Assembly (NCBI GenBank): GCA_029933125.1
Contig: JAOZOU010000001.1
Span: forward strand, 392,702-456,701
DNA length: 64,000 nt
DNA from: a bacterium
Lineage (GTDB): Bacteria > Arandabacterota > Arandabacteria > Arandabacterales > Arandabacteraceae
Direction of reading: 5' to 3'
Part shown: positions 23,999 through 51,764 of the stretch, in pieces
Numbering within the stretch: position 1 is the stretch's first letter
Layout: each line of letters begins with the position of its first letter
Notes under the pieces: generated by a model
What the model was told of the DNA's origin: nothing
Databases searched by the model: none
What the model saw: the letters and a program-made list of their open reading frames with translations, nothing else
Translations under genes and position numbers: made by a program

Positions 23999-24018
23999 TT
24001 GAGATCAATTTCCGTTAA

Positions 24019-24327: not shown

Positions 24328-24337
24328 CCTTACCCTC

Positions 24338-24841: not shown

Positions 24842-24857
24842 CAGCTAATCCTCCTCA

Positions 24858-25259: not shown

Positions 25260-25303
25260 GACTCCTCCTCAACATATTCACATTCCAGCGCTTTTAGCCT
25301 ATG

Positions 25304-25319
25304 AGCAAGTTCTGCGCCA
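25304..25319 (-). promoter_or_regulatory. Predicted sigma-54 (-24/-12) promoter upstream of flgB.
   Basis: The minus strand reads TGGCGCAGAACTTGCT, giving GG-N10-GC about 45 nt upstream of the flgB start. A sigma-54-dependent activator gene lies immediately upstream. Confidence 0.5.
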
Positions 25320-25376
25320 GAGAGACACCCTTGATCTTCATACACATAATTTCTTGGAAACAAAGAAGTTACCTTT

Positions 25377-26777: not shown

Positions 26778-26807
26778 ATCAGCCCCTCCACTTTAGGCTC
26801 TCTAATC

Positions 26808-28091: not shown

Positions 28092-28094
28092 GAT

Positions 28095-28454
28095 TTAGAC
28101 CATCCTCCCTGATATGGGAATGCCCTTCGAACAAAGCAGGCACTCAAGTTTTGTTTCAGCCTCTATGAGCTGGCGAAGTTCCATCATGAGCTCGCCAAAG
28201 CTCATCTTGAGATCTTCGGGAATGCTTATGCTCGGCCGACCCGCTTGATCAATGCGGAGTTCGGACGTGATCGTGCTTGAGAGCTGCCTCAAGCTATCAA
28301 CGCGCTCCTTCTTGGCTTCGAGAATCGATACAACCTCATCTATAGCTGCACCCTCATTGAGTCTCCCATCAAGATGGCGCGTTAGACCATGCAGTTCACT
28401 TACAATGTCATGTGCAGTCTCGATCATGAGTTTTATATCCTCAACTGAAGTCAC
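28095..28454 (-). CDS. Hypothetical helical protein of 119 aa, the second gene of the operon headed by the 79-aa ORF upstream of the kinase.
   Basis: It is tightly packed upstream of the kinase on the same strand and starts with GTG. No family is recognised, so a flagellar chaperone or regulator is only a guess. Confidence 0.3.
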   Translation of the reverse strand: MTSVEDIKLMIETAHDIVSELHGLTRHLDGRLNEGAAIDEVVSILEAKKERVDSLRQLSSTITSELRIDQAGRPSISIPEDLKMSFGELMMELRQLIEAETKLECLLCSKGIPISGRMV

Positions 28455-28462
28455 TTTCCCTA

Positions 28463-28699
28463 TCTCACAGCTGTTCTCGTATCCCTATGTATGCGACTTA
28501 GCCTTCTTACGATAGTCTCCCCAGGAGTTGGGAATCCTTTTGTAAAATCTGGAATTTTTTGCCCACCCGAGCTTGGCTTCCTTAGAGGCGGCAATTCTTG
28601 CCGCATCAACTCATCGCTTGTCATATGTTGTGGGCTTTCCTCTTGCTTAGCTAACCGTAGGCGATTTCGTGCACGCATTACGCTTTTGGAAATCGACAT
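28463..28699 (-). CDS. Hypothetical basic protein of 79 aa.
   Basis: This is the first ORF on the minus-strand run, in a different frame from the 119-aa ORF. It could be spurious. Confidence 0.2.
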
Positions 28700-28875: not shown

Positions 28876-28898
28876 AAGAATATGCGAAGGAGTATGAG

Positions 28899-31232
28899 GT
28901 GAAAACCGGATTTCGTTGCGCGCTCATTGGGCTATTTTTCTTTCTGAGTTTTTCGAACATATCGCTAAGTGCCCCTCTTGGTGATACCCTAACAGTCATC
29001 CAGAGACCAATCCTCAATATCCCTGCCATTGTAAGACCAGGTGATACCTTGAAGATTGAATGTGAGGCTGCAGGTGGTGCAGGTGGATGGGCGGCAGCCC
29101 TGGCTAGAGGCAGCGTGACTATTCCCCTGCCAATTATTGAATCCTCTTACGATGCTTCAACTCTGTGGTGGGAAATAGATGCCCTTGTACCAGATGTTCG
29201 CACATATGAACTTTACGATCTCATTGTGAGGTCTACCTCTCTGGTAGATACTGCTCGCCATGCTGTCAAGATTATACCTGAGTTCAAGACTGACTACTAT
29301 TTCATCCACATCACCGATACCCATCTGCCCACCCACCTTTATTACTTCGAGAACGGTGCAGCAACAGATACTTCGGAGATAGCAGACCTTAGAGAGGTCA
29401 TCAAGGATATCAATATCATCAATCCCGAATTTGTGCTCATAACTGGTGATCTAGTCAATGAGGGTGAGCTAGAAGATTATCTTTCGAGGAGGTATTTCAG
29501 TCGTGCTCAGCATCTCCTTCAGGAATTCCAATTACCCATATACCTCACATCTGGCAACCATGATATTGGGGGTTGGGGCGCCACCCCACCCCCTGATGGT
29601 ACAGCTCGCAAGAACTGGTGGAAATTCTTCGGCTGGAAGCGGCTTAACAATCCTCCCCAAGGCGCACCTTATTACACTCAGGATTATACATTCAACTATG
29701 GCAAGGTTCACTATGTCGGACTCGAAGCTTATATCAACTATGATGGCTGGCGGAGCCAGATATACGGAAGCCAAAGCTTCACAACAGGACAGATGCAATG
29801 GCTGGTTGCTGATCTTTCCCAATCTTCTGCCCCAACCAAGGTTCTCTTCTATCACCGCGACTTTTCCCACCAGATAAATCTGAGTCGTCTTGGAGCTGAC
29901 ATGGCCCTATCTGGTCACATCCATCGTGATGTGGATGATTTCACTCCTCCATATGACATTGCCACCAACAATGTCTGCGATGGTGAAAGATCCTATCGCT
30001 TGATAAGGGTTTCAGATGGCGAGCTCCAACCAGCGCGTACCATCTCAGCCGGCACTGATGGCCGCAATCTTGATGTGAGATACGAGCCATCCAATGACGG
30101 GAGCAACTATGTTGTCACCGCCCTTATAAGCAATAGATTCAATCAACGTTTTGAGAATGCGATGCTGCGATTTTCTATGCCTAATGAAGGCGGTATCAAG
30201 ACTGTCGAGGGGGGCGATCTCTTCCAAATAGAAACAAATGGTGAATATGCCACCTGGTATGTTAATGTTGACATCCATCCAACCTCCGAACAGAAAGTGA
30301 TTGCAAGGCTCGATGTAGTTCCGTCAACTCCACCAAGTGTGACTGTGGTTCAGCCAAACGGTGGCGAGCAGTGGAGTGTCGGCTCAAGGCATGAGATCGT
30401 GTGGAATGCTGAGGATGATCAAGGGATTGAGTCGCTTGACATCCTACTCTCAGGCGATGGTGGGCTTTCATTTGCTGATACGATCGCATCTGGGCAACCT
30501 GACAGTGGCTCCTTTCTCTGGACCGTTTCTCCACTTTCCACATCGCAAGCACGCATAAAGATCGTCGCTCATGATGTAGAAGGGAAAACAGGAGAGGACA
30601 TTAGCGACAATAACTTTTCAATACTTGATATTACACCTCCCGCAGTTACGCTTTATGAGCCCCAGGGTGGTGAGATCTGGGCAATTGATTCCATATATAC
30701 CATAACCTGGTCCGCAAGCGATGACGTAGATGTGACAGCAATTACGATCCTTCTTTCGCGAGATGGCGCTCTGAGTTTTCCCGAAACGTTGGTAACCAAT
30801 GAGACCAACGATGGCACTTATGACTGGAAGGTTTGTGGCGAGCCGACCCGACATGCAAGGGTGATGATAATCGCCTCCGATGAAAGCGGAAATGCTTCGA
30901 GTGATATGAGCTTGAGTGACTTTGAGATCTATGATTCTTCCGCGCCAGGTTCCGAGATCCCTTCTGGGGTTATCATAAGGGCGAGCGCGCCTAATCCCTT
31001 TGATCAGACACTCGTCATCGACTTTGGAATACCAAGTGATGGACAAGTTGATATATCACTCCTTGATGTTAGAGGAAGAAGGGTTTCTCGAGTTGTTGAG
31101 AGAACCTACACTGCGGGATATCACAGGATCGTCTGGACACCTCAAGGTAATCTTAAGCCGGGCATCTATTGGCTTGTTGTTGAGATGGGAGATAGGGTAG
31201 CAGCCTGTAAGATCGTTCGCCTTAGAACTTAA
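28899..31232 (+). CDS. Secreted calcineurin-like metallophosphoesterase with tandem Ig-like domains and a T9SS-type C-terminal sorting domain.
   Basis: It has a signal peptide and the metallophosphatase motifs FIHITDTH, ITGDLVNEG and LTSGNHD. Two internal repeats of about 100 aa follow (VTVVQPNGGEQWSVGSRHEIVWNAEDD and VTLYEPQGGEIWAIDSIYTITWSASDD). The C-terminus NPFDQTLVIDFGIPSDGQVDISLLDVRGRRV...GIYWLVVEMGDRVAACKIVRLR is a Por/T9SS-type C-terminal domain. Confidence 0.75.
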   Translation: MKTGFRCALIGLFFFLSFSNISLSAPLGDTLTVIQRPILNIPAIVRPGDTLKIECEAAGGAGGWAAALARGSVTIPLPIIESSYDASTLWWEIDALVPDVRTYELYDLIVRSTSLVDTARHAVKIIPEFKTDYYFIHITDTHLPTHLYYFENGAATDTSEIADLREVIKDINIINPEFVLITGDLVNEGELEDYLSRRYFSRAQHLLQEFQLPIYLTSGNHDIGGWGATPPPDGTARKNWWKFFGWKRLNNPPQGAPYYTQDYTFNYGKVHYVGLEAYINYDGWRSQIYGSQSFTTGQMQWLVADLSQSSAPTKVLFYHRDFSHQINLSRLGADMALSGHIHRDVDDFTPPYDIATNNVCDGERSYRLIRVSDGELQPARTISAGTDGRNLDVRYEPSNDGSNYVVTALISNRFNQRFENAMLRFSMPNEGGIKTVEGGDLFQIETNGEYATWYVNVDIHPTSEQKVIARLDVVPSTPPSVTVVQPNGGEQWSVGSRHEIVWNAEDDQGIESLDILLSGDGGLSFADTIASGQPDSGSFLWTVSPLSTSQARIKIVAHDVEGKTGEDISDNNFSILDITPPAVTLYEPQGGEIWAIDSIYTITWSASDDVDVTAITILLSRDGALSFPETLVTNETNDGTYDWKVCGEPTRHARVMIIASDESGNASSDMSLSDFEIYDSSAPGSEIPSGVIIRASAPNPFDQTLVIDFGIPSDGQVDISLLDVRGRRVSRVVERTYTAGYHRIVWTPQGNLKPGIYWLVVEMGDRVAACKIVRLRT

Positions 31233-31252
31233 GCAAATGGGGATTCAGAGGA

Positions 31253-31849
31253 ATGTCTAAAACAGAATCAGGAGTAATCTGCATCCTTGGAAGCCCGAGG
31301 CGAGAGGGCAACACTGACAGACTTGCAAGCGAATTCCTGAAGGGTGTGGAAAGCAAGGGCTATCACTCAAGAGTGATAATCCCGACCGAGCTCGATATAA
31401 GTTGGTGTGACGGCTCCAATCAGTGCTTCCGTGATGGGCTATGCATCATTCGTGATGGAATGAATGAGATCTATGAGGAAATCCTAGAGGCGTCGCATCT
31501 CGTAATTGCGACACCTGTTTACTTCATGGGTCCACCTGGATCACTTAAATCCTTTATCGACCGCTTCCAGGCTGTCTGGGCACGTACAGCGATTCTAAAG
31601 ACCTTTGATCCAGATGATGAGCTCTGGCGCTCGAAACACAAAGCCTTTGTCATCATTGCAGCTGCATCTGAAAAGCCAAATATGATTCGTCCTACGAGGA
31701 GCATTTTGAAAGCCTTTCTCAACATAATAGGTTTCACCTACGCTGGGGAGCTCATAGCAACTGGCCTCGACCGAAGAGGCGATGTTCTGATTCGCGAGGA
31801 TCTCCTCAAGAAGGCTTATGAGGCTGGCTCTTGCTTTGTAGGATCATAG
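31253..31849 (+). CDS. NADPH-dependent FMN reductase / flavodoxin-like fold protein.
   Basis: The N-terminus ICILGSPRREGNTDRLA and HLVIATPVYFMGPPGSLKSFIDR are typical of the FMN_red/flavodoxin_2 family. It is probably co-transcribed with the upstream gene (20-nt gap). Confidence 0.7.
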   Translation: MSKTESGVICILGSPRREGNTDRLASEFLKGVESKGYHSRVIIPTELDISWCDGSNQCFRDGLCIIRDGMNEIYEEILEASHLVIATPVYFMGPPGSLKSFIDRFQAVWARTAILKTFDPDDELWRSKHKAFVIIAAASEKPNMIRPTRSILKAFLNIIGFTYAGELIATGLDRRGDVLIREDLLKKAYEAGSCFVGS

Positions 31850-31906
31850 CTAAGAAGTTCACCAGATTTTGAAAGCCTTAGTGCACAAGCACATTCCTGG
31901 GACTTC

Positions 31907-33058
31907 CTACTTAAGCATCTCCGCAGGACGTGTAAAGTCCCTGTAGAGGCTAAAGCTTGAGAAGATATCCTGCGCTATGATTGGCTTGCCGGTTGTCATG
32001 AGGCTAACAATATTCCTGGCGATGCCAGGTCCCAACATGAGCCCCTGTCCACAGAAGCCAACCGCAACAAAGAGGGTTTCACTCCCCTCAAGGCGATCAA
32101 CTATAGGCACGCCATCTGGTGTCATCGGGTAAAGACCACGCCATGTGCGTCTTACCCTGATATTTCTCAATCTTGGGAAGAGGCGAATCAGGCGCCTTGC
32201 TGCCTGAGGTAGAAACCCAGAAGTTGCATTGCGACTGAAGCCGGGTATGATGGGATCTGGTGTGAGGCAAAAAACAATGTGCCCGCCTTGCTCCTGATAG
32301 AAATAGAAATTCTTTGAGCCCGGGAATCTTCTCATATCAACAACGAGAGGCTTGAAGAAAGTTTGCACAGGTTCGGTGACACCACCCTCGTGGCAGTCAG
32401 GTTCGACGGGAAGATCAACGCCCATGAGTTTGCCAACCCGGTATGCATTAGCGCCAGCAGCATTAAGAACCTTCCCGGTTGAATATGAACCCTTGGTGGT
32501 GACAACATCAACTGACTTACCCCTATCCTTTATTCCTACAACCTTCTCACCAAATGCAAACTCGACGCCAATCTTCAACGCCTGGCGATAGAATGCTCGG
32601 TTGGCAAGTAAGGGTGAGACATTTCCATCCTCGGGTGAATAGGTACCACCGCGTAGACCATTTCCATCAAGTCCTGGCAGAAGTTTGAGGATTTCATGGC
32701 AATCCAGCCAGTCGATGTTCAACCCGTAGCGCTTCTGGACCTTTAGAAGTTCCTTGAGACTGTTCTCATCGTCCTCGTCATAGACAGGAAAGCAATAGCC
32801 ACCCCTCTGGAAATGGATATCATCGCCATAGGTCTCCTTCCAGGTGCTGAAGATTTCGAGACTGAGCTGGCAAACCTGGATCTTGGCAGGGTCCGAATGA
32901 GTTGCCCTTACCCCACCAATTGCGCTCTTATTCTGGCCCTGGCCAGGCGAAACAAGTTCATCTACGACAAGGACTCGGAGTCCCTCCTTACCAAGAAAAA
33001 AGGCGGTTGGCAGACCCACGCTACCAGCTCCAATAACCACTACATCGTAAGATGCCAT
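31907..33058 (-). CDS. FAD-dependent oxidoreductase of the DAO family (SoxB/HcnC/OoxB-like beta subunit).
   Basis: The N-terminal dinucleotide-binding motif is YDVVVIGAGSVGLPTAFFL. The 383-aa product lies 5 nt downstream of the alpha-like subunit. Confidence 0.7.
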   Translation of the reverse strand: MASYDVVVIGAGSVGLPTAFFLGKEGLRVLVVDELVSPGQGQNKSAIGGVRATHSDPAKIQVCQLSLEIFSTWKETYGDDIHFQRGGYCFPVYDEDDENSLKELLKVQKRYGLNIDWLDCHEILKLLPGLDGNGLRGGTYSPEDGNVSPLLANRAFYRQALKIGVEFAFGEKVVGIKDRGKSVDVVTTKGSYSTGKVLNAAGANAYRVGKLMGVDLPVEPDCHEGGVTEPVQTFFKPLVVDMRRFPGSKNFYFYQEQGGHIVFCLTPDPIIPGFSRNATSGFLPQAARRLIRLFPRLRNIRVRRTWRGLYPMTPDGVPIVDRLEGSETLFVAVGFCGQGLMLGPGIARNIVSLMTTGKPIIAQDIFSSFSLYRDFTRPAEMLK

Positions 33059-33063
33059 CTCGT

Positions 33064-35148
33064 TTACTTATTTCCTTCCTTATCCGCTCCTCGTTGCTCG
33101 GAGACTTCACCTGCAAGCACACGAAGCGTGACCTCCGCAACAAGTGGACGCTTGGTGAAGCGTACAACCTCTTCCGTATTAATTCCCTCCTCCTGGAATA
33201 GCTGGAGTATGAGCGGCTCACATGTTTTCCCACCACATGCCCCCATGCCACACCTCAGCACCTTAAGCTGGTTGAGATCCCTCACGCCAGATCTTATCAA
33301 TTGACGTATCTCGCCAGCCGTCACACGCTCGCACCTGCAAACGATGTAATCATCATCTCCCAGGGTCTTCTCTGATCGCCTTGCATCAAAAGACTCCTGG
33401 AGCCGCAATCCCGCAATGCGAATAGCCTCATCAGGTCGGACTCTCAGCTTCACAAGCTTTGTGCGGTCATAAACCTTCCTTTCCAGGATGTCCTCAATGC
33501 TTGCCTTGCAGACAAAGTTGCCATCGATATCAACTGCCTCGACTGTTCCACCCACCTTGACCCGCTCATCATTCACCTCAAGGGGGACGGTGACATAGGC
33601 TTGGTCATCATTGCGAAGGTCAACCAGTGTGATGGCAAGCCCTGGGCAGGCTGCAACACAAAGTGTGCAGCCCGTGCATTCATCTTTTACAACCTGGGGG
33701 ATACCAAGTACTGGATCTCCCTTCATCTCGATCATGTTCTTGGGACAAACGTGGATACAGGGATCGCACGGAATCTCCTGGATACACCTTATGATGGGAA
33801 AGAGCTTCGATGGCGGAATAGTGACATCGAGGCTAGTTGTCTTTCCAGGCTTGCTTTTAAGAATATTGAGCCGTACTTGCCAATCACCGGGTATATCGCA
33901 AGCCTTACCGAGACTCCTCGCAATCTCTCTTCCAGCAATTCTGCCTGAGAAGATTGCAGCTGATGCTTCAGCAATCTCAAGAGCATCACCTGCACAGTAG
34001 GCTTTCATACCAAATGATCTTGCCTGCTCATAGAGCTCACTAATCGGATTGAGCCCGACAGCAACCAGCACTGTATCAGCCTCAAAGGTTCGCTCCGTGC
34101 CATCGATGGGTCGGAAGCGTTTATCCACCTTAGCGATTGTCACCGATTCAACCCTGTCAGTGCCGTCCACCCTCTTGATCGTATGTGAAGTCCAGACGGG
34201 CACTCCAAGGCGCTTTATCTTGTCCTGATGCACCTTGTAGCCTCCAACTTGCGGCATGGCTTCAACCAGTCCAACGACATTTATGCCAGCCTGAATTGCA
34301 TGGTAGGCAGCTATGAGACCTACGTTGCCCCCACCAACTACAAACAGCCTATGAGCTGCTTTGACGAGATCTCGGTTGACAAGAGTCTGGAAGGCACCAG
34401 CACCATAGACGCCTGGGAGATCACATCCCGGGAAGGCAAGTGCACGCTCACGAGCACCAGCAGCCACCAGGAGACGTTTAGGTTTTATGAGAAGATACTT
34501 CTCGCCACTTACAATTCCTATTTTGCGATCCTCAAAGCAGCCAACAGCAGTCGAGTTAAGCATAACTCTGATGTTGGGGAATTTGCTCACCTCATCACTT
34601 AGTTTCTTTGCAATATCGATCCCGCGAGTTCCTGCATAACAATCAGCAACTGTACCAAAGAAGGAATGGGTTTGGAGAACAAGCTTGCCTCCGAGAATGT
34701 GCTTGTCATCAACTATGATTACATCAATCCCGTAAGCTGCCAGCTCTAAGGAAGCAGTTATTCCCGAGGGTCCACCGCCTATTATGAGCACATCTGTCCC
34801 AAGTGTTTCGATCTCCTCGAAGTGCTCAGGGGGTCTGTCATCGGGGGGGAGCTCCGGCAACTCATCACAGGGAACGATATGCATACCTGGCTTCACCTGT
34901 GTCATGCAACCCTTCACAGGAATCCCATCAGCAATGACCATACATTGAGCACATTGACCATTTGCACAGAAAAGTCCCTGAGGGCTGCCATCCTTGACAT
35001 GATGACCAAATATCTTTATGCCATTGGCAAAAAGAGCCGATGTGATGACCTCACCCTGCCTGGCAAGGAGCTCCTTCCCCTTGAAATAGAAACGTACCTT
35101 AGGCTTGTCCTCAACCTCAAGGATAGGATGTCTCTCTATTCGATCCAT
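33064..35148 (-). CDS. Multidomain Fe-S flavoprotein alpha-like subunit of the SoxA/HcnB/OoxA class (2Fe-2S + FAD/NAD(P)-binding + 4Fe-4S + BFD-like 2Fe-2S).
   Basis: It has an N-terminal 2Fe-2S-type Cys cluster (CANGQCAQCMV...GC), two GxGxxG Rossmann motifs (IIGGGPSGITASL, VVGGGNVGLIAA), a CTGCTLCVAACP ferredoxin motif, and a C-terminal BFD-like CRCERVTAGEI...CGMGACGGKTC. Confidence 0.7.
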   Translation of the reverse strand: MDRIERHPILEVEDKPKVRFYFKGKELLARQGEVITSALFANGIKIFGHHVKDGSPQGLFCANGQCAQCMVIADGIPVKGCMTQVKPGMHIVPCDELPELPPDDRPPEHFEEIETLGTDVLIIGGGPSGITASLELAAYGIDVIIVDDKHILGGKLVLQTHSFFGTVADCYAGTRGIDIAKKLSDEVSKFPNIRVMLNSTAVGCFEDRKIGIVSGEKYLLIKPKRLLVAAGARERALAFPGCDLPGVYGAGAFQTLVNRDLVKAAHRLFVVGGGNVGLIAAYHAIQAGINVVGLVEAMPQVGGYKVHQDKIKRLGVPVWTSHTIKRVDGTDRVESVTIAKVDKRFRPIDGTERTFEADTVLVAVGLNPISELYEQARSFGMKAYCAGDALEIAEASAAIFSGRIAGREIARSLGKACDIPGDWQVRLNILKSKPGKTTSLDVTIPPSKLFPIIRCIQEIPCDPCIHVCPKNMIEMKGDPVLGIPQVVKDECTGCTLCVAACPGLAITLVDLRNDDQAYVTVPLEVNDERVKVGGTVEAVDIDGNFVCKASIEDILERKVYDRTKLVKLRVRPDEAIRIAGLRLQESFDARRSEKTLGDDDYIVCRCERVTAGEIRQLIRSGVRDLNQLKVLRCGMGACGGKTCEPLILQLFQEEGINTEEVVRFTKRPLVAEVTLRVLAGEVSEQRGADKEGNK

Positions 35149-35422
35149 CGCTATGGCTGCCTTCCCATATCAATCAGCCATCGAGTAACTGCCTATGTTC
35201 AATGGCGTTAGCATACATCCAGATATCCTTGTGATGATAACATTGAAGCAGGCGATAGTCAAAACTCATAAAATTCCCATTGCGGGCAAATGTTACCCTG
35301 GATTCGCCATCCTGCTTGTGAGCTTGAAACACACGACAGGCAAGAATTGACACAGCCATGAGCGAGTGATAAACTCACCGAGTTCTTTGTGAAGAATATG
35401 GCGCTCATCTGGAGAAGAGCTC

Positions 35423-36544
35423 ATGAAACTATTCTTCCACCATATTGCAATTGGGTTTTGTGTTATCATCACTTCCGGGATATGTTTTGGCGCAGCCTCA
35501 ATAACCTCCGTCACGGCAATTGATACCCCAGACGATGCTGGTGAGAGCATTATGCTTGAGTGGGAGGCGACGGGGGAGAGCCCCATAATCATAACGCGGG
35601 CGCCTAAGCCTGAAGGCCCCTTCGAAGTGATCGGTAAAGGACTGGCATCTGATGGTCATTACACTGACAATGGCGTAGAGGATGGGAAACCCTATTACTA
35701 CCGCATTGGAATTGTCACTGATCACGATACGACTTATACCACCGCAGCAGGGCCTGCCATATCCAAAAGTAACTGGTTTCGTAAGCATCGCCTCAATGCT
35801 CTGATCCTCACAATCCTAATGTTCGCACTTCTTGTCTACTTCATTGAGGCAGCGAAGAAGGGTAAGAACCTTTACATAAGGCGCATAGCAGGACTGAGTG
35901 CGCTTGAGGAGGCAATAGGCAGAGCAACTGAGATGGGAAAGAAGATTCTCTATATTCCTGGTATCCTAAGTATCAGTGAGATTCAGACAATTGCAAGCCT
36001 TTCCATCTTGGGATACGTGGCCAAACTCACTGCTACCTATGGTGCTAACATGGAAGTCCCCAACATCGATCCCCTCACATATTCGGCTGCCCGTGAGACA
36101 GTGAAGCAATCCTATATGGAAGCAGGTAAGCCTGATAAGTTCAGGGATGATATGGTCACATACATTACCTATGATCAGTTTGCTTATGCAGCTGCGGTTA
36201 CCGGTAAGATGGTAAGAGAGAGGCCTGCTGCTCACTTCTTCATAGGTTCCTTCTATGCTGAATCCCTGATTCTTGCTGAAACTGGCTACAGTACTGGCGC
36301 TATCCAGATTGCCGGCACAGCCGATCTTGCCCAGCTTCCCTTCTTCGTTACAACGTGCGATTACACTTTGATCGGTGAGGAACTCTATGCAGCAAGCGCT
36401 TACCTTTCACGTGAACCAGTGCTCCTCGGTAGCATAAAGGCGCAGGATATCATCAAGGCCATTCTTATGATGGTGATTGGCGCTGGAATCATAAGTTTCG
36501 CCTTTGGATCTGAGTTCATACGCAATCTTCTCCTCACAAAATAA
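35423..36544 (+). CDS. Membrane protein of unknown function with an Fn3-like ectodomain.
   Basis: It has a signal peptide, an extracytoplasmic domain of about 90 aa with W...YYYRIG hallmarks, a transmembrane helix, and a conserved-looking cytoplasmic domain of about 230 aa ending in a second hydrophobic helix. No family is recognised. Confidence 0.5.
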   Translation: MKLFFHHIAIGFCVIITSGICFGAASITSVTAIDTPDDAGESIMLEWEATGESPIIITRAPKPEGPFEVIGKGLASDGHYTDNGVEDGKPYYYRIGIVTDHDTTYTTAAGPAISKSNWFRKHRLNALILTILMFALLVYFIEAAKKGKNLYIRRIAGLSALEEAIGRATEMGKKILYIPGILSISEIQTIASLSILGYVAKLTATYGANMEVPNIDPLTYSAARETVKQSYMEAGKPDKFRDDMVTYITYDQFAYAAAVTGKMVRERPAAHFFIGSFYAESLILAETGYSTGAIQIAGTADLAQLPFFVTTCDYTLIGEELYAASAYLSREPVLLGSIKAQDIIKAILMMVIGAGIISFAFGSEFIRNLLLTK

Positions 36545-36563
36545 GAAACGCCAGCCTTGCGTA

Positions 36564-36770
36564 TCACTCTGTTCCCGTGCTTTTCCCCTGCAATGCTGGC
36601 CATTCAGCGAATGCGAGGTAAAAGATCATGACAAGATTAACAATTGGTAGGACCATGAGAAGTGAAAGCGCTCCAGGGAATCCAGCCTTGCTGAAGATAC
36701 GCCAGAATGGTAAGACCACAATAAGCGCTATCAGAATCATCGACAAGAGTATGCTGCCTGCAGTCACCAT
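36564..36770 (-). CDS. Small two-transmembrane membrane protein of the DUF5684-like type.
   Basis: It is 68 aa with the motif WRIFSKAGFPGALSLLMVLPIVNLVMIFYLAF, which is typical of a widespread family of tiny membrane proteins. Confidence 0.45.
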   Translation of the reverse strand: MVTAGSILLSMILIALIVVLPFWRIFSKAGFPGALSLLMVLPIVNLVMIFYLAFAEWPALQGKSTGTE

Positions 36771-36892
36771 CTTCGCCCTCCTTTGCAGAAACGATTAGCG
36801 CGGCACCCAATGTGGGCAATATGTTTCTCATACTGCTATTTAGCTCCACAATACCGCCGGGAGATCTGAGAAACTCCTGATGAGTGTGTAGC

Positions 36893-37486
36893 CTAAGGTT
36901 TCCACACCTCCCAGACTTTGCCAACAAGCCCTGGTCCAGGCTTCAGAGTAACCTGCCCGACCTGCCACCCCGATGGTGTCACCTCGCCTGTGTTCCGCAC
37001 ATGCTGAAATGCCTTTATCTGACGAATGAGCTCATCAGGATTACGGCCCACCTCCGGTGTCAGGACTTCCATTGCACGAATCACAAAATCGGGATCGATT
37101 ATGAAACGCCCTCTGATATCAACACCAGCCGCTTCATCATAAACACCATAGATTGCTCCAATCCTGCCGCCGGCATCCGAAAGCATGGGGAAGGGAACAC
37201 CACCCTCAACCATCTTTGAAAGCTCCTGCTCCTGCCAGATCTTATGAACGAAACGGCTATCGGTACTCATTGAGAGCACTTCAACTCCCATTGCCTTAAG
37301 CTCCTGATAGCGGGCAGCGACCGCTGCCAATTCTGTCGGTCAGACAAATGTGAAGTCACCAGGATAGAAGCAAAGCACAATCCATTGACCCTTGTAGTCG
37401 GATAGTTTTACTGGCTTGAATCCATAGTCTCTTACAAATGCGGTAGCTTCAAAATCAGGAGCTGGTTTGCCAACTCTTGCAATCAT
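36893..37486 (-). CDS. Selenocysteine-containing peroxiredoxin (AhpC/Prx1 family, PrxU-like), with an in-frame UGA at the peroxidatic Cys position.
   Basis: Two collinear in-frame ORFs are separated only by TGA at 37340..37342. The joined product reads [14 protein letters not shown]...[34 protein letters not shown], which matches the FYPxDFTFVCPTE peroxiredoxin active site. An AGGAGG ribosome-binding site lies 7 nt before the ATG at 37486. The C-terminal resolving Cys is absent (GEVTPSGW), so this is a 1-Cys/Sec type. Confidence 0.8.
37313..37328 (-). promoter_or_regulatory. Putative SECIS hairpin 11 nt downstream of the in-frame UGA.
   Basis: The mRNA reads UGA-CCGACAGAAUU-GGCAGC-GGUC-GCUGCC, giving a perfect 6-bp GC-rich stem with a GGUC apical loop (G/U-containing, as in bacterial SECIS elements). 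Confidence 0.45.
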
Positions 37487-37827
37487 CCCGACTCCTCCTG
37501 AAAGCTTTCTTCCCCCGTATGCCTCTCCCGCTTCTTCCTCAGGGAGCAGCGGACCCCTTGCAGGCTGGACACATCCATCCTTAAGCTCTGCCATAGCCAC
37601 CTCCTCGTTTAAGAGCGACCTATTCTCGAAATGACACCTTTGGCTAATCTTGAATCCGTAACAATCCTGTCAACTTTCTCCTTATAGCTCAAACCAAAAC
37701 CTCGTAAAGGTCAATCGGATTTTTGGCAATCGCAATATCGCTGGGCCCAAGGGTAGGATGCCAACATGCGGATATACTTACCAAGGGAAAGATCCTAGCC
37801 CTGCATGAAGAACTGCTAACCCTCTTC

Positions 37828-37850
37828 GAAGGCTCCGTCAAGGAGCCTTC
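37828..37850. other. Perfect 9-bp inverted repeat (GAAGGCTCC-N5-GGAGCCTTC) in the intergenic region between the M1 peptidase and the peroxiredoxin. It may be a terminator or a regulatory hairpin.
   Basis: The repeat is visible in the sequence and has no flanking U-tract on either strand. Confidence 0.3.
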
Positions 37851-37882
37851 CTTCGGCAAGATGCCTTATCCTAGGCCAAACC

Positions 37883-40606
37883 TTACTTGATCAGCACGAG
37901 CTTGCGCCTTAGGGCACGGTCATCAACCTTGAGCAGGTACCAGTAGACACCTGATGCAACATTCTCCCCCCACCTGTCGCGCCCATTCCAGCTAACAGTA
38001 TGGTTCCCCGCATCCATGACTTCATCCACGAGTCTTGTCACTTCTCTCCCTCTCACATCGTAGATGCTGAGGAGAACACGAGCCCTATTCGAGAGACTAT
38101 ACTTAATGCGGGTCGCGCTCACGAATGGGTTTGGAGTATTTTGCCCAAGCCAGATACGGGGTTTGATTTCATCAGCTATGCCACTCGGATTATAGGGCTC
38201 ACCAAAGAAGTTGCGAAGGATGAACTCACAATTGCTACGCATTGCATCATGGTCATAGCGATAAGGACGCCCAGCGATGAAAACGAACTGTCCGCCGTCC
38301 GCTCGCTGAGTTCCGCCAGAGGAAGGATTGCGCCAGACACCAAGCCCACGTGGGATTGGAAACATATTATATTGCATGAACAATACAGTGCTTTCATCGC
38401 CAACAGATGCTGAATCAAAAACAGCATTATAGGTCTGGGAACCGCCCGAGCGCGGCATATCAACGAGTCCAGGATAAACGCTCGTTGCTCGGCGTGTTGT
38501 GTTCTCCTTATCCTCCGCCCACTGGATGTCAAGATAGGCTCTTAAGGCTTCGTAAATAAAGTCCTGACCCATGCGCGTAAGAAGCAAGACGTTGCCGCCC
38601 GCCTTAAGATATGAAACTATTGGAGCATTGTACCAGGCAGTTAGATCACCATTGTAGTTGTTGCCTACCCAGACAACCGATGAGAATTGCTTGAGTGTAT
38701 CGGCGGGAATGTCACCATGTCCAAGAGGTTGTGGGAGCGGTGAAGGATAGCCACCAGCAGGCTCAGCAAAGATATCCCAGAAGGATATGTCAAGTGACCC
38801 CCAGAAGATACTATCTTCATAAGCCGAAGTTATCTCAGTGCCATAAGTGTTCCAATCAACCCCATTGACAACAAGGATACCACGATCGAAGGTTGCATCC
38901 TTAAGCTCCTCAGAGACCATGCGCAGAATCCATTCATCCTTGTCAAGTTGAACATCCTGTGGTTCATCACTTACAAGAAGCGTAAATTGCTGACTCGCAA
39001 GGCTATCTTCGACAACGAGTGTGGTCTCCCCTGATGCTGTTGTAACACTTATCTGGATAGGCATATTAAAGATCTGATTCTCTTGTAGCCGGTCAATCGT
39101 CAACGATATTTCATAGCCATCTACAACTGGCTGATAATCCCAAGAAAACATGTAATGCGGGAAACCCTCCCCATATATCCACTCCTGGAAGAAGGCATCG
39201 AAATCTCTTCCAGCAACCTGCTCGCAGATATCTCTGAATTGCTCCGTGGTTGCTGAACCATACTGATATTGGCTGTTATAATAAGCATGGAGAATATCGA
39301 AGAAAGTTGAATCCCCCACAATTCCCCTCAACATATGGAGTACCCAGGATGCTTTGTTGTATGACAGATCCGGATCGAAGATACGATCCCAATCAGAAAG
39401 GTCGGGCACGTAGATTGTGCCTGGTCCGTAATACTTAGCATATTCCATTTGATTCTTATATTCGTCCCACCCGTATTCATGTTCTGCCCAGAGCGCTTCA
39501 CTGTATGTTGCAAAGCCTTCATTGAGCCAGATGTGATTGAAGGTATTGCAGGTTATCATATCTCCCCACCACTGATGCGAAAGCTCATGAAGCACAAGAT
39601 ACTCGCCCCAGCCCCAGAGGCTGGTAATCGTCTGGTGCTCCATGCCACCACCCCATGTAAACTCCGCCTGACCGTATTTTTCCTCGATGAAGGGGTACTC
39701 ACCATACAGATTGGCAAAAAGACCAATCATATCGGTTATCTTGGCATAGTTGGTTACACAATCAGGATAGTGGCTAGCGAAAACATAGTGGCGAATTTCC
39801 ATCGAATCAGTAGGTGAATAGTGATAGTAATCGGAATAGACGATGTAGGGATGAATTGCTACAGAGACAAGATAAGTAGCTATGGGATAGCCTTCGTGCC
39901 ACTTGTAGGTCTTTGTGCTTCCATTGTCGATGGTTGCTCTGAGAACCCCGTTTGAAGCATCAATAAGATTGCTAGGCACTGTGATCCAGATATCAACCGA
40001 GTCTGGCTTATCGTTGGGATAATCCTTGCAAGGCCACCACGTTCTTGCCCCAAATGGCTCACTCAGGCTCCATATCATATCCTCGCCATCGAAGGACTCG
40101 AAAGCAAAGGCACCAGCCGAAGACGATGGAGTGCCATGATAATAGACTGTAAAGGAAAAGGCCTCACCTGTTGAATAGGAGCGGTCAAGATTGACAGTGA
40201 GGATGTCGTTGGCATGGCTGAAGGTGAGATTACCGCTCGCAGATGTGATACTGTCCACAGTCATGTTGGAATAGAGGTCAACATCGACTTGAGAAAGCGG
40301 TCCAGTAGTAACCTCAGCCCTCATCTCGACCCCGCCTGAAACCGTTTGAGTTGCTGGATCTATGTTGAGATCAAGATGATAGTACTTGGCATCGTAGCAA
40401 TTCTGATTTGGCGTAGGCTCCGTTGCAAGAGCCTCCATGCGGGCAAAGAAACGTGCCTTTGCCTCCGCAACCTGGCAGGCTATGTCACCAGGGCGCTCTG
40501 GTTGTATCCACCTTGGCTGGGGTTGTGCAAGCCCAAGCACAGAGAAAGAAATCACGAAGGCAACAAGAAAGCAAAGCTTGAAGACCAAGTGAGTTTGATG
40601 TCCCAT
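37883..40606 (-). CDS. Secreted M1-family zinc aminopeptidase with a T9SS-type C-terminal sorting domain.
   Basis: The HEXXH-X18-E zinc motif is present (VLHELSHQWWGD...WLNEGFATY). It has a signal peptide (start placed at MGHQTHLVFKLCFLVAF). The C-terminus is NPFVSATRIKYSL...LLSIYDVRGREV...GVYWYLLKVDDRALRRKLVLIK. Confidence 0.85.
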   Translation of the reverse strand: MGHQTHLVFKLCFLVAFVISFSVLGLAQPQPRWIQPERPGDIACQVAEAKARFFARMEALATEPTPNQNCYDAKYYHLDLNIDPATQTVSGGVEMRAEVTTGPLSQVDVDLYSNMTVDSITSASGNLTFSHANDILTVNLDRSYSTGEAFSFTVYYHGTPSSSAGAFAFESFDGEDMIWSLSEPFGARTWWPCKDYPNDKPDSVDIWITVPSNLIDASNGVLRATIDNGSTKTYKWHEGYPIATYLVSVAIHPYIVYSDYYHYSPTDSMEIRHYVFASHYPDCVTNYAKITDMIGLFANLYGEYPFIEEKYGQAEFTWGGGMEHQTITSLWGWGEYLVLHELSHQWWGDMITCNTFNHIWLNEGFATYSEALWAEHEYGWDEYKNQMEYAKYYGPGTIYVPDLSDWDRIFDPDLSYNKASWVLHMLRGIVGDSTFFDILHAYYNSQYQYGSATTEQFRDICEQVAGRDFDAFFQEWIYGEGFPHYMFSWDYQPVVDGYEISLTIDRLQENQIFNMPIQISVTTASGETTLVVEDSLASQQFTLLVSDEPQDVQLDKDEWILRMVSEELKDATFDRGILVVNGVDWNTYGTEITSAYEDSIFWGSLDISFWDIFAEPAGGYPSPLPQPLGHGDIPADTLKQFSSVVWVGNNYNGDLTAWYNAPIVSYLKAGGNVLLLTRMGQDFIYEALRAYLDIQWAEDKENTTRRATSVYPGLVDMPRSGGSQTYNAVFDSASVGDESTVLFMQYNMFPIPRGLGVWRNPSSGGTQRADGGQFVFIAGRPYRYDHDAMRSNCEFILRNFFGEPYNPSGIADEIKPRIWLGQNTPNPFVSATRIKYSLSNRARVLLSIYDVRGREVTRLVDEVMDAGNHTVSWNGRDRWGENVASGVYWYLLKVDDRALRRKLVLIK

Positions 40607-40836
40607 GGCATACTCCTTCCTGTTTAGAAACTGCGAGCGTTGCACAAATGGCTTAGCCAGATAATTCTCACACATCAAACTGCAACAGTTCAATTATACC
40701 ACAACCAGGCACTTTTGCATAGACGCATAGGTGCGCATTACCCCAGGTTGGGGTTGGAATTGTATCGAGCAAGAAAAGGGGATATCGGAGGCGCCCGTCC
40801 TGTTCGTTGGCTGATGATTGAGCCTATTGCGAGAAG

Positions 40837-42408
40837 CTACTTGACAACACCGATCTTAACCACCAAACTTCTCTGGCGTGTCTTTATCTGGCAGAAGTAG
40901 ATTCCCGAGCTAATGCGAGAACTTCCACCCTCTAAAGTGCTTAGATCAAGCAGGAGAGCATTGCTCATCCCATCCTGAATGGGTCTAAGTGAGCATATGA
41001 ATCTACCCATGATATCATAGAGCCTTGCAGACCTCACGGATTGCGCGGACAAAGTTTCAGGGAGCTCGAGAACCATACCTCTGTCACTCAGGCGCTTACA
41101 AGAAAGTGTACGCGGTAGGTAATCGGATGATGCCTTCCAGCCGTGGACTTCCAAGCCGTTATCTTGCCGAGAAGCGAGACTTTCGCCAGCCAGATCGCGT
41201 GGCCTAATCCTTGAACGGCAAGCAGGATTGGTAAGCACCTCATCAATATTAGCTACCTTGAGCCTCTTCCCTACAGCGTAGTCGATAATGTCAGATAGCA
41301 TGCTTGTCTCGATACACCACAATCCGTAGCAGGTATCGGCAACAACATGATTGTTGAGGATATACCACAAGCCATCGTCGGCGGCAGCATCGATATATTG
41401 CCGATAATGATTGAGAAGCCAGTAATCCTGGCTGCAATAAGACTTGAGGAAACATCGATTCATTAGGATCGGAAAGCGATTTAATGCATCATCCCCAAGC
41501 CTGCATGACTCGTAATAGTGGCGTACACTATCAATAACTGTATCGTTGTATGCAGAATAGGGAACGGCAAAGTGCTTAACAGGAAATCCCATCTTCTCCA
41601 GTATTTCCTTGGATAGCGTGAGCTCCTTCATCAAACTGTCACCGCTTATCTCAGTGAGTCTTGGATGCGTCATACTGTGACTGCCGATATCCCACCCGGC
41701 TGCCTGGAGTGCATGCAGTTCATTCCAAGTCAAATATCCGGGCTTTTCAAGCCACGTTGGGACAACATAGGCAGTTGCTGTCACATTCTTGCTTTCAAGA
41801 AGCGGCAGAGCGTATTCATAGAGGCTGCTTGAGCCATCATCGAAGGTGAGGGTGAGCACCCCAGTGTATCCTGAAACCGCCACTCTTCGCGTTAGTGTCC
41901 TGCCATCGCCCAGGTGAATAGTCACACGGACAGCATAGTCAATGGGTTGAGTGAAGGTGTGGGTGACCTTAATGCCCGTCGCATCAACGATACCATCATT
42001 TTCAAAATCCCATAGGATCTCGCTTTCGCCCTCAGGATCAAGGATCACTTCAAAATCAACAGCGAAGGGAACTACACCCCAATTGGTAGAAGCTTTAATT
42101 TTGACCTGTGATGTGGGCTCTGTGCAACCCGTCGGCTCAACGGGAGCTGCTGCTTGAGTGTCCGAATAAAGGGGTACCGCGAGAAGCATGGTAATACCTA
42201 AAGCAGCTGCTATGGAAAGTACAAAGGCCCACCCGCTTACGTTTCCCCCAGCTTTAACAAAAGATAGGTCAGGTGGGGTGCCATGATCCTGGTCTGGCCT
42301 TGCCTGTTTAGGCCCCTTGTTACAAAGGTGGGCAGGGATGGCTGTTAAGGCTTTTCTCAGGGGATTCGAGACCTCGGAAAATGGGGCATTGCTCTCCATG
42401 ACACGCAT
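40837..42408 (-). CDS. Secreted polysaccharide deacetylase (NodB/CE4 domain) with a PKD-like domain and a T9SS-type C-terminal sorting domain.
   Basis: The NodB motifs LTLTFDDGSSS and WDIGSHSMTHPRL are present. A PKD-like segment (ILWDFENDGIVDATG) precedes them. The C-terminus is LYDIMGRFICSL...SGIYFCQIKTRQRSLVVKIGVVK. The start codon is uncertain. Confidence 0.75.
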   Translation of the reverse strand: MRVMESNAPFSEVSNPLRKALTAIPAHLCNKGPKQARPDQDHGTPPDLSFVKAGGNVSGWAFVLSIAAALGITMLLAVPLYSDTQAAAPVEPTGCTEPTSQVKIKASTNWGVVPFAVDFEVILDPEGESEILWDFENDGIVDATGIKVTHTFTQPIDYAVRVTIHLGDGRTLTRRVAVSGYTGVLTLTFDDGSSSLYEYALPLLESKNVTATAYVVPTWLEKPGYLTWNELHALQAAGWDIGSHSMTHPRLTEISGDSLMKELTLSKEILEKMGFPVKHFAVPYSAYNDTVIDSVRHYYESCRLGDDALNRFPILMNRCFLKSYCSQDYWLLNHYRQYIDAAADDGLWYILNNHVVADTCYGLWCIETSMLSDIIDYAVGKRLKVANIDEVLTNPACRSRIRPRDLAGESLASRQDNGLEVHGWKASSDYLPRTLSCKRLSDRGMVLELPETLSAQSVRSARLYDIMGRFICSLRPIQDGMSNALLLDLSTLEGGSSRISSGIYFCQIKTRQRSLVVKIGVVK

Positions 42409-42573
42409 TCTCCCTTCCCTGGTAGAATGTAAGTGGATCCCATTGGCTCAAAGCCATGGTGATGTCATCTTTTTTCACCATGTCCCGCACCGAGCTTCAT
42501 TCCGACTTCTACTACCCTCCTTTAATCAAATTATCACATCCTTGTCAAGTAGCGAAAGTCAAAGCGGGTTGCA

Positions 42574-42602
42574 TTGAAATGCAGGCGCATTTATGGTAAA
42601 AT
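42574..42602 (+). promoter_or_regulatory. Predicted sigma-70 promoter for the C25 peptidase gene.
   Basis: TTGAAA (-35), a 17-nt spacer and TAAAAT (-10) are followed by a GGGAGG ribosome-binding site before the ATG at 42678. Confidence 0.45.
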
Positions 42603-42677
42603 GGCAAAAATAGATAGCGAGGTCAGATCTGATTCGTATCCTCGCCCCGCATAGACCACCGAGCTGGGAGGATAGCT

Positions 42678-45600
42678 ATGCGTAAGTCATCCCCGATCTT
42701 TTTGTTACTCAGCCTCTTTGCAGTCACTTCAGTAGCAGGTCCCCCTTCCCCAAAGTGGGTAGGGTTAGGAGGTAAGCCCTATCAGGCACAACCCCAAGTT
42801 GAAGTCAGCACTCAATTCTCTGAAGAAATTGTCATCCAGGTCAACATGGCAGGCTTCATTGCAGACCGCGTTGAGTCAAAAGTCGGTTGGTTTGCATCGA
42901 TTGAGATACCCGGCTGTGGCCAGACCAATGCGATTGGCAAAGCCAGACTTCCAGTTCTAAGGCGTGCCATTGAGATACCTCAGGGAGCAGCTCCTAATGT
43001 CGAGGTCATAGAATACACTACCACCACATACGCACTCGCCGATCTCAACCTTCCGCCAAGGATCTACCCAGTTCAACCCCCGATTGAGAAGATTCCAGGA
43101 GCCAGGCAAAGAGCTCCGTTTAAGATGTCCGAATCTTTTTATGCCTCCTCCAAGCCCTATCCTTCCTACAAGGCATGCATTGTTGAGATTGGGCAGATGC
43201 GTGGGCACAGATTTGCTGTTCTCGAGATCCCTGCAGCTATTTACATCCCAGCCTCAGGTACTTTGGAGATTGTGACAAACATAGGTTTGAGAGTCACCGT
43301 TAAAGGAGCGGATGAAGCAGCCACACGAGCAACAATTGATCGTTACGCTTCACCCTATTTTGAAGCCATTGCCTCAAAAGCACTTCTTAACTACAAGCAT
43401 CCGACAATTAAGGCCATCCCTCAAGCGCCTGTCGGCTTTCTTGTCATCACTTCACCAGACTACTACACAGAAATTCTCCCACTTGCTGAGTGGAAGAGCC
43501 AGCGAGGCTATTACACCACTGTCACTCAAACACCAGACATACCAGGCGGCGCAACTACGACAGCGATCAAGTCCTACATTCAAGATGCCTATGAGAATTG
43601 GGATGTCCCGCCAACCTTCGTGCTCCTGGTTGGAGATGTCGATGCCATTCCCAACTGGACAGGAACCGAGATTGACAATCCTCCAACCGATCTGTATTAC
43701 ACCACCATGACTGAACCCGACTACATCCCCGACATTGCAATTGGACGTATCTCAGTATCAAGTGCTACCGAAGCACAGGCTGCGGTCGGAAAGATCCTCA
43801 ACTATGAGAAGCGCCTTTTTAGCCACACCTCATGGCTTAAAAAAGCGGTCTTCATGGCCTCTGAAGACAACTGGGACATAACAGAGGGCACCCACAACTA
43901 TGTCATATCCACCTATATGGATCCTGCAGGTTTCACATCTCTGAAGCTATATTGCCACACCTACAATGCTACAACCCAGGATGTCAGCGATGCTTTCAAT
44001 GAGGGAACAGGCCTTGGAATCTACTCAGGTCATGGTGCAACGACCTACTGGGCGGATGGACCTCAATTCATGCAAAGTAACGTTGCTGCCCTAACTAATC
44101 TCGATATGTATCCCTTCGTTCAGAGCTATGCTTGCCTCACAGGGAGATATACCGAAGCCGAATGCTTCGCCGAAACATGGATCAGGCAGGCTGACAAAGC
44201 TGCAGTTGGCTTCTGGGCATCATCGGTGACCTCCTACTGGGATGAGGATGACGTACTTGAGAAGGGTGTTTTCAAGGCACTCTTCGAAGATAGCCTTACC
44301 TGGATTGGCGGGATGATAGACCAGGGCAAGTGGCATCTTTATGAATATTATGGAGGTGCTGGCTCAACCAGGCGCTATTATGAGATGTATAATCTCCTTG
44401 GGGATCCATCAGTTGATATTTGGACAGATGAGCCCCACACTATGGATGTTGCCTATGCAACAGCCATCCCGGTTGGTGCGACGAGTTACGAAGTCCATGC
44501 GAGCGAGAATTCAACCCCTCTTCCAGATGCAATGGCTTCGCTTTTCTGGCCAGGTACACTCTTCGGCAGTGGCTATACGAATTCGAGCGGTGATGCAATG
44601 CTCGACCTCAATCCAAGCCCGAATGAGCCAGGTGAGATGATTCTCACCCTGACACACCACAACTTCACTCCTTTTAGTGATACGCTTCAAGTTGTTGTCC
44701 CTGCTACTGTCGTGATAGATCCGGATACGATTGAAGTTGGGGTCACAACAGCAGTTAGTGTGGCTGTGCTTGATACGCTTTCTGCTCCAGTGGAAAGCGT
44801 CGAAGTGACAATTGATGGTTGGGGAATTGAACCGCCTCTGCATGATACTACAGATGCTTCAGGCCAGGCCTACTTCAGCATTAGCGCCCCATACGGCGAG
44901 GCTCTCTCGGTCAAGGGAAGCAAACTCAATCAATCCTATGATCTCTTCAATGATTCGCTATATGTTGTCGGAGCAATTGCCCTACCCAACCCTGCGATTG
45001 AAGCTCGTGTTGATGCCGTTGGTCTTGTCGGCGCTCTCACACCCGATTTTGAGGGAACGATCGTGGGTAGAAGCGACCACGCAGGCCTCGACATCTTTGC
45101 CAGAGGCTGTGGCATTGACACTTCAGCTTCTTCATCCTCAGACTCAGTCATAGTCGCTGCCACGCCAGATTGTGTCGGTCAAGTCAAGGTTGCTTTAGCT
45201 TCTCCAGGCTATGAGGTCTATGAAGATGAGATCAGCGTGATCATTGCCTACGGAACACTTGCAGGCACAGTACTGGACTCAACCACAGCTCAACCCATCG
45301 AAGGTGCCTTGCTGAGGGCTTATCCATCTGGCTCAGATACCTCGAGTACTCCATCATCCTTTGAAACGTTAAGTCAGGCTGATGGATCATATGCCTCGAG
45401 CGATAGTCTTCGCGTCGGCGCATATCAAGTCTATTCAACCAAGTTCGGCTATCTTGCTTCTGCTGGCTCAACCATGATCCGGGTGGGTGCAAACACCTAT
45501 GACATCCTCATGATTCCAGCCCCTGCTGGGATTGTCACCGGTACAGTGACTGAGGAAGGCACAGGTAAACCCCTGAGTGCTACACTTGAGATATATCGGA

Positions 45601-47459: not shown

Positions 47460-47732
47460 GCGAATAACATTGCAGCCGTCGTGTTATTCTGCACTACAAT
47501 GGCAGGACGTTGCTTACCCTGAGCTGAGACTCTTACCCTGATTGGTGATGGGGAAATCTGAAAAATAGTTGCTGCCGTTGCGTGACCATTTTTGTCTTGC
47601 TATCGACCTCTGTCAAAATGGCAACAACCGCAGCATCGGCACCCCTCGCCTACCCCATCACACTCACTAGCGCCCAAATCTTAGCCAGTCGGTAATCCGA
47701 TCTCAAGCCAATCAGTCTGCCTGGCCCCAGGA

Positions 47733-50584: not shown

Positions 50585-50630
50585 GAGATCTCGTCAAAGC
50601 CGATATGATATTGCCTGAGAAAAATCTCCA

Positions 50631-51674: not shown

Positions 51675-51764
51675 CTAATGTAAAGGAGGAGGAAAGGATG
51701 GGAAAAACCAAAGCATTGACACTTCCTCTTTCCCGGGTAATATAGCAAGTGAAAGGAGGATGGA

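Follow-up and report, generated by a model that had tools for sequence, protein, structure and literature searches.

Is a peroxiredoxin gene that is cut by an in-frame TGA a broken gene, or does the TGA encode selenocysteine (Sec) at the catalytic position of one intact protein? The question is raised by a locus on the minus strand of a 64,000-nucleotide stretch of contig JAOZOU010000001.1 (the window, meaning the whole stretch analysed), from a bacterium of the Arandabacteraceae. An earlier note, made from the sequence alone, had pointed to two same-frame open reading frames (ORFs) there, 37340..37600 and 36893..37330, and both are present in the program-made ORF list. In sequence and translation they form a single frame of 233 sense codons, from ATG 37594 to TAG 36893, with TGA 37342..37340 as its sole interruption. 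The UGA falls on the peroxidatic position and is followed by a hairpin, the product belongs to the PrxU family, the TGA is conserved among relatives, selection acts on both halves of the gene and two extra cysteines are conserved. We regard it as very probable that the locus is one intact prxU gene, encoding an AhpC/Prx1-type peroxiredoxin with a thioredoxin fold and a peroxidatic Sec, and not a pseudogene. From the intact, constrained gene and its Sec insertion sequence (SECIS) element we infer that Sec is inserted in this organism.

A prxU reading frame with TGA at the peroxidatic codon

The long reading frame (36893..37594, minus strand) opens with ATG at 37594..37592 and closes with TAG at 36895..36893, Sec85 being counted among its sense codons. 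The frame had been read correctly before, but its start had been placed at GTG 37600, and ATG 37594 is likelier. A Shine-Dalgarno (SD) sequence, AGGAGGTG, can be read at 37598..37605 (minus strand), its GGAGG core 5 nt upstream of this ATG. An in-frame 'KEV/EEV-x-M' pattern, the codon reading of AAGGAGGT, recurs upstream of the first Met in homologous loci, and homologues of 232-240 aa align with the prxU product from the first residues. The Sec85 codon (TGA, 37340..37342, minus strand) occupies the peroxidatic position of a P78xxxT82xxU85 motif. In the context PGDFTFV-U-PTE it aligns with the peroxidatic Cys of Prx2, just as the earlier note had it, and Pro78, Thr82 and Arg161 are the active-site residues of the long form. 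The same note held that the C-terminal resolving Cys is replaced by Thr. This is borne out by the alignment of GEVTPSGW to GEVCPAGW of human Prx2, in which the codon ACA (36977..36979, minus strand) puts Thr206 at the resolving-Cys site of typical 2-Cys peroxiredoxins. Thr is nearly invariant at this position across PrxU relatives.

For profile and structure searches, Cys was put in place of the stop in the joined protein. The long form scores 374.3 bits against NCBIfam NF040737, the peroxi_PrxU equivalog for a thioredoxin-dependent selenoperoxiredoxin, for which the cut-off is 270. The short form alone, taken from an internal Met discussed below, scores 366.1 bits, and profile positions 2-230 of 233 are covered only with the N-terminal extension included. 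Pfam AhpC-TSA matches the joined product at E = 2.8e-37. Human Prx2 (PDB) matches at E = 5.5e-49 over residues 3-184 of the short form, with the TGA aligned to the peroxidatic Cys (FTFVCPTE). The AhpC equivalog TIGR03137 is not reached (182.3 bits against a cut-off of 272), the C-terminal resolving Cys being absent (Thr206). A score above the PrxU equivalog cut-off and a UGA at the peroxidatic codon support the assignment to a Sec-containing, PrxU-type peroxiredoxin that had been proposed for the locus.

Sec-containing peroxiredoxins with a TxxU motif are an experimentally verified family of prokaryotic selenoproteins (PMC13188914; PMC9312934). The PrxU motif is given as PxxxTxxU in PMC13188914, which cites Sohling et al. 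(2001) on PrxU, the selenocysteine-containing peroxiredoxin of Eubacterium (Peptoclostridium) acidaminophilum. The window protein shares with that protein and with NF040737 the AhpC/Prx1-type fold, a UGA-encoded peroxidatic Sec within PxxxTxxU and the lack of a canonical C-terminal resolving Cys. It differs in its conserved N-terminal extension, which is 36 residues long and bears a Cys motif; the E. acidaminophilum protein, reportedly described by Sohling et al. in 2001 as 203 aa with Sec47, would correspond to the short form. The host of the window gene is an uncultured bacterium, and the closest named fragment, 87% identical, is from candidate division TA06. With typical 2-Cys peroxiredoxins (human Prx2; bacterial AhpC, TIGR03137) the window protein shares its fold and the active-site Pro, Thr and Arg, but it has Sec for the peroxidatic Cys, Thr for the resolving Cys, and the extra cysteines Cys8 and Cys75. 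Such genes had been called rare, which overstates the case: PrxU is widespread in metagenome-assembled genomes of anaerobes and has its own NCBIfam model. The window gene thus adds to a known, widespread selenoprotein family.

If the gene were broken, its homologues should align poorly across the TGA. They do not. Among the 80 closest genomic homologues, with one genome taken per species, TGA stands at the Sec codon in 79 and TGC in one, and the frame is kept across it. These loci, some of them from cultured strains (Desulfacinum hydrothermale and Desulfothermobacter acidiphilus), span phyla such as Chloroflexota, Acidobacteriota, Desulfobacterota, Planctomycetota, Zixibacteria, Krumholzibacteriia, Latescibacteria, Ignavibacteria, Nitrospirae, Armatimonadota, Actinomycetota and Firmicutes. 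There are also homologues with a Cys codon, including a close syntenic relative, L081, which has TGT. Against eight relatives, the proportion of nonsynonymous differences (pN) is 0.04-0.14 and that of synonymous differences (pS) is 0.68-1.0, which is saturated, both upstream and downstream of the TGA. Such strong purifying selection on both halves indicates that the frame has been kept as one protein over a long divergence, including on the window's own branch.

The protein databases give a different picture of this codon. Thousands of relatives were found among the 5.8 billion proteins searched, and columns were tallied on the best 120 cluster representatives. At the Sec column, 57 of these have Trp and 46 have Cys, while 13 of the 120 are C-terminal fragments that begin just past the TGA; many independent contigs give fragments starting right after it. 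The Trp residues probably come from gene callers that read TGA with genetic code 4 on short contigs. The earlier note had described such genes as routinely mis-annotated, as two fragments or a pseudogene; among these best homologues, mis-annotation takes the form of fragments and of Trp entries. In the source genome, too, annotation appears to be fragmentary: a database fragment of 132 aa (P0103), covering the last part of the gene and 100% identical to the window, comes from an NCBI contig of 611,679 bp, which suggests that the genome record annotates only this piece of prxU. The gene-call artefact is systematic in metagenomes (57/120 Trp, 13/120 fragments). Its correction is the practical value of this analysis, as fragments and entries with Trp at the active site hide both the selenoprotein and the organism's probable use of selenium.

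The hairpin as a probable SECIS element

The mRNA downstream of the UGA contains the hairpin GGCAGC-GGUC-GCUGCC (37313..37328, minus strand), which starts 11 nt after the UGA and places the apical loop 17 nt from it. In order, the element consists of the spacer CCGACAGAAUU (37339..37329, 11 nt), the 5' arm GGCAGC (37328..37323), the loop GGUC (37322..37319) and the 3' arm GCUGCC (37318..37313). The 6-bp stem with its 4-nt loop is as the earlier note described it and is present in the minimum-free-energy (MFE) fold. At -10.2 kcal/mol (z = -3.7), the 16-mer hairpin is more stable than every one of 200 shuffled sequences; a 46-mer folds at -13.4 kcal/mol. Perfect hairpins with a 6-bp stem and a 4-nt loop occur in the window at a chance rate of 4.2e-4 per nt, and 12 of its 2930 TGA triplets have one 8-14 nt downstream. 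By itself the hairpin is weak evidence. The combination of an in-frame TGA at a catalytic codon, the hairpin and conservation in homologues argues that the arrangement is not due to chance.

We compared the fold of the RNA after the UGA with the published model for bacterial SECIS elements (bSECIS). The consensus of Zhang and Gladyshev, as drawn in Fig. 2A of PMC13188914, has an apical loop of 3-9 nt above a stem (the upper stem) of 4-16 bp. One of the first two nucleotides of the loop is a G, with G or U as its usual successor, the UGA and the apical loop are 16-37 nt apart, and the MFE is no higher than -7.5 kcal/mol. The window hairpin agrees with every one of these constraints, with a loop of 4 nt, a stem of 6 bp, GG in the loop, 17 nt from the UGA and -10.2 kcal/mol. 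Relatives invariably have G and U at loop positions 2-3, though a Val codon also forces them.

A known element for comparison is that of E. coli fdhF, the sequence of which matched at 100% inside fdhF when checked on 5,419 E. coli genomes. Both elements have an 11-nt spacer after the UGA and a GGUC apical tetraloop, and both lie within coding sequence. The window hairpin differs in its perfect 6-bp stem, without a bulged U and without a long lower stem. Its loop GU lies at +22/+23, compared with +23/+24 in fdhF, and SelB would bind it by analogy with the E. coli element.

Across relatives, the hairpin was followed in an ungapped alignment of 81 sequences, with 79 distinct rows for pair counts. 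It stands at the same columns in 80 TGA genes, with 93.5% of cells paired. Pair 18-27, which joins two synonymous third positions, is GC in 58 of the distinct rows, AU in 16, GU in 4 and CG in 1, with none unpaired, and pair 15-30 is formed in 73 of the 79. Covariation scores 0.235, compared with 0.130 in column shuffles, and none of 500 shuffles reached the observed value; shifting the 3' arm by one or two columns lowers pairing to about 30%. Mean hairpin energy is -10.4 kcal/mol in the 80 TGA genes and -7.0 in 7 genes with a Cys codon (one-sided Mann-Whitney p = 0.011), a contrast that, with seven Cys loci, is suggestive and not decisive. Two of these Cys-codon genes, L074 and L083, retain the full 6-bp stem, as is expected of recent Sec-to-Cys conversions. 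The first and last nucleotides of the loop (37319..37322; columns 21 and 24 of alignment A2) also change together across relatives, GGUC versus AGUU, and this joint change could reflect shared ancestry.

In E. coli, SelB carrying Sec-tRNA(Sec) binds the apical loop of the SECIS element while the UGA is in the ribosomal A site. By analogy, the hairpin 11 nt downstream of UGA 37342..37340 would offer its GGUC loop to SelB-Sec-tRNA(Sec), and SelB would deliver Sec and so forestall termination by release factor 2. Following the chemistry of peroxiredoxins, the Sec85 selenolate, activated by Pro78, Thr82 and Arg161, would then attack H2O2 or an organic hydroperoxide and be converted to selenenic acid. 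The presence of prxU marks this uncultured anaerobe as a likely decoder of Sec with a high-reactivity peroxide scavenger.

Several observations weigh against this reading and have to be set beside the rival explanations. The peptide A-A-V-A-A (A/S/T-A-V-A-A/V in relatives) leaves no freedom in four of the six pairs of the stem or in the GU of the loop, so the independent structural evidence rests on two pairs at synonymous sites. The hairpin sequences compared are phylogenetically related, and a weaker hairpin persists in some Cys-codon homologues. A search of the whole window at gathering thresholds gave no Rfam match, which is informative only if Rfam has a bacterial SECIS model able to match here, and a permissive Rfam search of 37200..37450 gave chance-level matches only. 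Neither tRNA-Sec nor selA, selB or selD lies within the 64-kb window, and Sec decoding in the organism is therefore an assumption. Finally, an AlphaFold2 model of a Cys-type relative (P0005) has a confident peroxiredoxin domain (mean pLDDT 86.8), but pLDDT is about 56 at the N-terminal motif and below 50 in the linker, so that docking of Cys8, the candidate resolving residue treated below, is not placed.

Could the hairpin be a by-product of the code for A-A-V-A-A and not a SECIS element, with the UGA read through by another route or not at all? The codons GCN-GCN-GUN-GCN-GCN do force four of six pairs and the loop GU, and L074 and L083 still form the 6-bp hairpin with a Cys codon. Yet the pairs that are free to vary covary (18-27 is paired in 79 of 79 rows, 15-30 in 73 of 79), the hairpin is weaker in Cys-codon genes, and in spacing and loop it matches the fdhF element, which has been defined experimentally. 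Prx2 has no A-A-V-A-A past its active site, suggesting that the RNA shapes the peptide and not the reverse. We consider a coding by-product improbable. About equally improbable is a relic in which the lineage has lost Sec decoding, the TGA terminates, and what follows is either dead or has a translation start of its own at TTG 37330. The lack of Sec machinery in the window, the 132-aa extent of the identical NCBI-contig fragment P0103 and the TGT (Cys) of the close syntenic relative, by which Sec would be dispensable in the clade, are all compatible with it. A decaying gene, however, is hard to reconcile with two halves that are intact, in frame and free of any further lesion, with pN of 0.04-0.08 to the nearest relative on each side of the TGA where synonymous sites are saturated, or with a perfect hairpin in an arrangement kept in 79 of 80 relatives. 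Moreover, a C-terminal fragment would be inactive, as it has neither the Pro, the Thr nor the peroxidatic residue.

Two further explanations concern the codon itself, and we give almost no credence to either. Genome-wide reassignment of TGA to Trp or Gly (genetic code 4 or 25) would place W or G at the active site, and W does stand at the Sec column in 57 of the 120 best database homologues. Nevertheless, TGA ends 21 of the 58 long ORFs in the window and is thus an ordinary stop there, no other conserved gene has an in-frame TGA, and in the two further cases where TGA joins ORFs of the same frame the ORFs are just neighbouring genes. Catalysis would be lost with Trp at the peroxidatic position, and the W residues are best explained by code-4 gene calling. 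The other possibility, that the gene is an ordinary Cys peroxiredoxin whose TGC or TGT became TGA through faulty sequencing or assembly, would take a single base change, and Cys-codon homologues exist; against it, the same TGA is found in 79 of 80 independent assemblies, and many independent contigs yield fragments that start just past it.

Conserved cysteines and a probable internal start

If prxU encodes one Sec-containing protein, how would its catalytic cycle be completed? Since Thr206 replaces the canonical resolving Cys, the selenenic acid would have to be resolved either by a different conserved thiol or by a thioredoxin-type reductant acting on it directly. The earlier note had called the protein a 1-Cys peroxiredoxin. 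The canonical resolving Cys is indeed missing, but the 1-Cys label is not established, because two other cysteines, Cys8 (83 of 84 loci) and Cys75 (84 of 84), are conserved. Cys75 (TGC, 37370..37372, minus strand) lies in the strand LCFYPGD, ten residues before Sec, at a position that is Phe in human Prx2.

Cys8 (37573..37571) belongs to an N-terminal motif, K5-D-G-C8-V-Q-P-A-R-G-P-L16 (37547..37582, minus strand), and is a candidate resolving or partner cysteine. The consensus in relatives is M-x-E-x-K-D-G-C-V-x-P-A-R-G-P-I, and over the 84 loci its residues are conserved as follows: C in 83, V in 81, P in 77, G (Gly14) in 84, P in 78 and I in 74. Third codon positions in the motif come close to saturation (1.7-2.0 bits), in contrast to conserved first and second positions, indicating that the N-terminal extension is translated and selected as protein. 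The distance from Cys8 to Sec is held to 72-78 residues, and the linker sequence is free. We favour Cys8, carried on a flexible linker 72-78 residues before Sec, as the thiol that would resolve the selenenic acid, with Cys75 as the alternative. The PARGP of the motif may resemble the RAGP and RAPP arrest motifs of SecM and ApdA.

Within the coding frame lies another Shine-Dalgarno sequence, AGGAGGAG (37492..37499, minus strand), which encodes S-G-G-V and whose core is conserved across loci. It precedes an internal ATG (37484..37486, minus strand), Met37 of the long form, which stands directly before the peroxiredoxin domain and is the probable start of a short isoform of 197 aa with Sec49. An SD core of at least 5 nt is found within the 15 nt from -18 to -4, upstream of an internal ATG, GTG or TTG, in 79 of 85 loci, compared with 8.2% of control windows in the same genes. 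Because the internal SD is spelled by varying amino acids (QEV, KEV, RRE, GG, SGGV) and in varying codon phases, it is conserved as nucleotide sequence, at the level of the RNA. Gene callers often pick the internal start, giving homologues of 196-203 aa. Two planctomycete-type Cys homologues, which have an apparent signal-like N-terminal segment along with the Cys motif, are without the internal SD site.

Taken at the level of sequence, the internal SD and ATG suggest that both a long and a short isoform are made. The short one would be similar in size to the 203-aa, Sec47 protein reportedly described from E. acidaminophilum. This raises the possibility, which we put forward tentatively and hold at somewhat less than even, that PrxU is a two-start gene in which the N-terminal Cys of the long isoform resolves or protects Sec and the internal start gives the short isoform, so that the cell could set the ratio of self-resolving to reductant-dependent subunits. 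In the literature library searched we found no description of the two-start arrangement, the N-terminal Cys motif or the internal start. What may be new in this analysis is confined to the N-terminal Cys motif and the internal ribosome-binding site. Both bear on how the catalytic cycle is completed without a canonical resolving Cys, and they could lead to new work.

Genomic surroundings

A scan of 36400..38000 found no promoter-like site and a single terminator-like site, which lies inside prxU and is within the number expected by chance. The immediate neighbours of prxU are an M1 peptidase with a FlgD_ig-type C-terminal domain (37883..40693, minus strand), a polysaccharide deacetylase, a 68-aa membrane protein, a DUF6754 protein, an FMN reductase and an oxidoreductase with its DAO partner. 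The oxidoreductase, a 694-aa protein with Fer2_4, Pyr_redox_2, 4Fe-4S and BFD-like 2Fe-2S domains, stands beside the DAO-family flavoprotein at 31907..35148 (minus strand), and the pair is syntenic with prxU in both L001 and L081.

The earlier note placed the gene next to a rubrerythrin and a hydrogenase cluster. This was loosely put, as the two lie 14 and 19 kb away and neither is adjacent. The rubrerythrin-like gene is at 51765..52217 (plus strand). The cluster, of a membrane-bound group-4 [NiFe]-hydrogenase/Mrp type (56271..63998, minus strand), contains the C-terminus of a large subunit, which ends in DPCYCCTER and so has Cys and not Sec, together with Proton_antipo_M subunits, MnhE, a 4Fe-4S protein and the maturation protease HycI.

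L081 (1..12687), whose protein is 79% identical, keeps the gene order of window positions 28878..55045. The order in common is Metallophos, FMN reductase, DAO, Fer2_4 oxidoreductase, prxU, DUF6754, radical SAM, rubrerythrin, GlnA and alkaline phosphatase. In L081, however, a FUR-family regulator is divergently upstream of prxU, a DUF5320 gene adjoins it and rubrerythrin is 2.5 kb away, while the window has about 14 kb inserted (the M1 peptidase, the deacetylase, a 1593-aa surface protein, a T2SSE ATPase and HDOD) and its prxU is inverted relative to the neighbours. No FUR homologue is present in the 64-kb window. Of 84 loci, 12 have FUR-family genes flanking prxU, and the presence of such genes near prxU in relatives, together with that of rubrerythrin, fits a peroxide-stress regulon.

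The two other same-frame ORF pairs joined by TGA in the window were considered as selenoprotein genes and rejected, each consisting of separate neighbouring genes: a rubrerythrin-like gene followed by an unannotated ORF at 51753..52877, and FlhF followed by FliA at 3497..5335. A large flagellar and chemotaxis-type cluster, read from translations only, extends over 254..28484, mostly on the minus strand. Its products include proteins like FlhA, FlhB, FliP/Q/R, FliM/N, FlgE, FliI, FliG and FliF, as well as a histidine kinase alongside a sigma-54 activator; FlhF is also encoded, and a sigma factor of the FliA type comes after it in the same frame.

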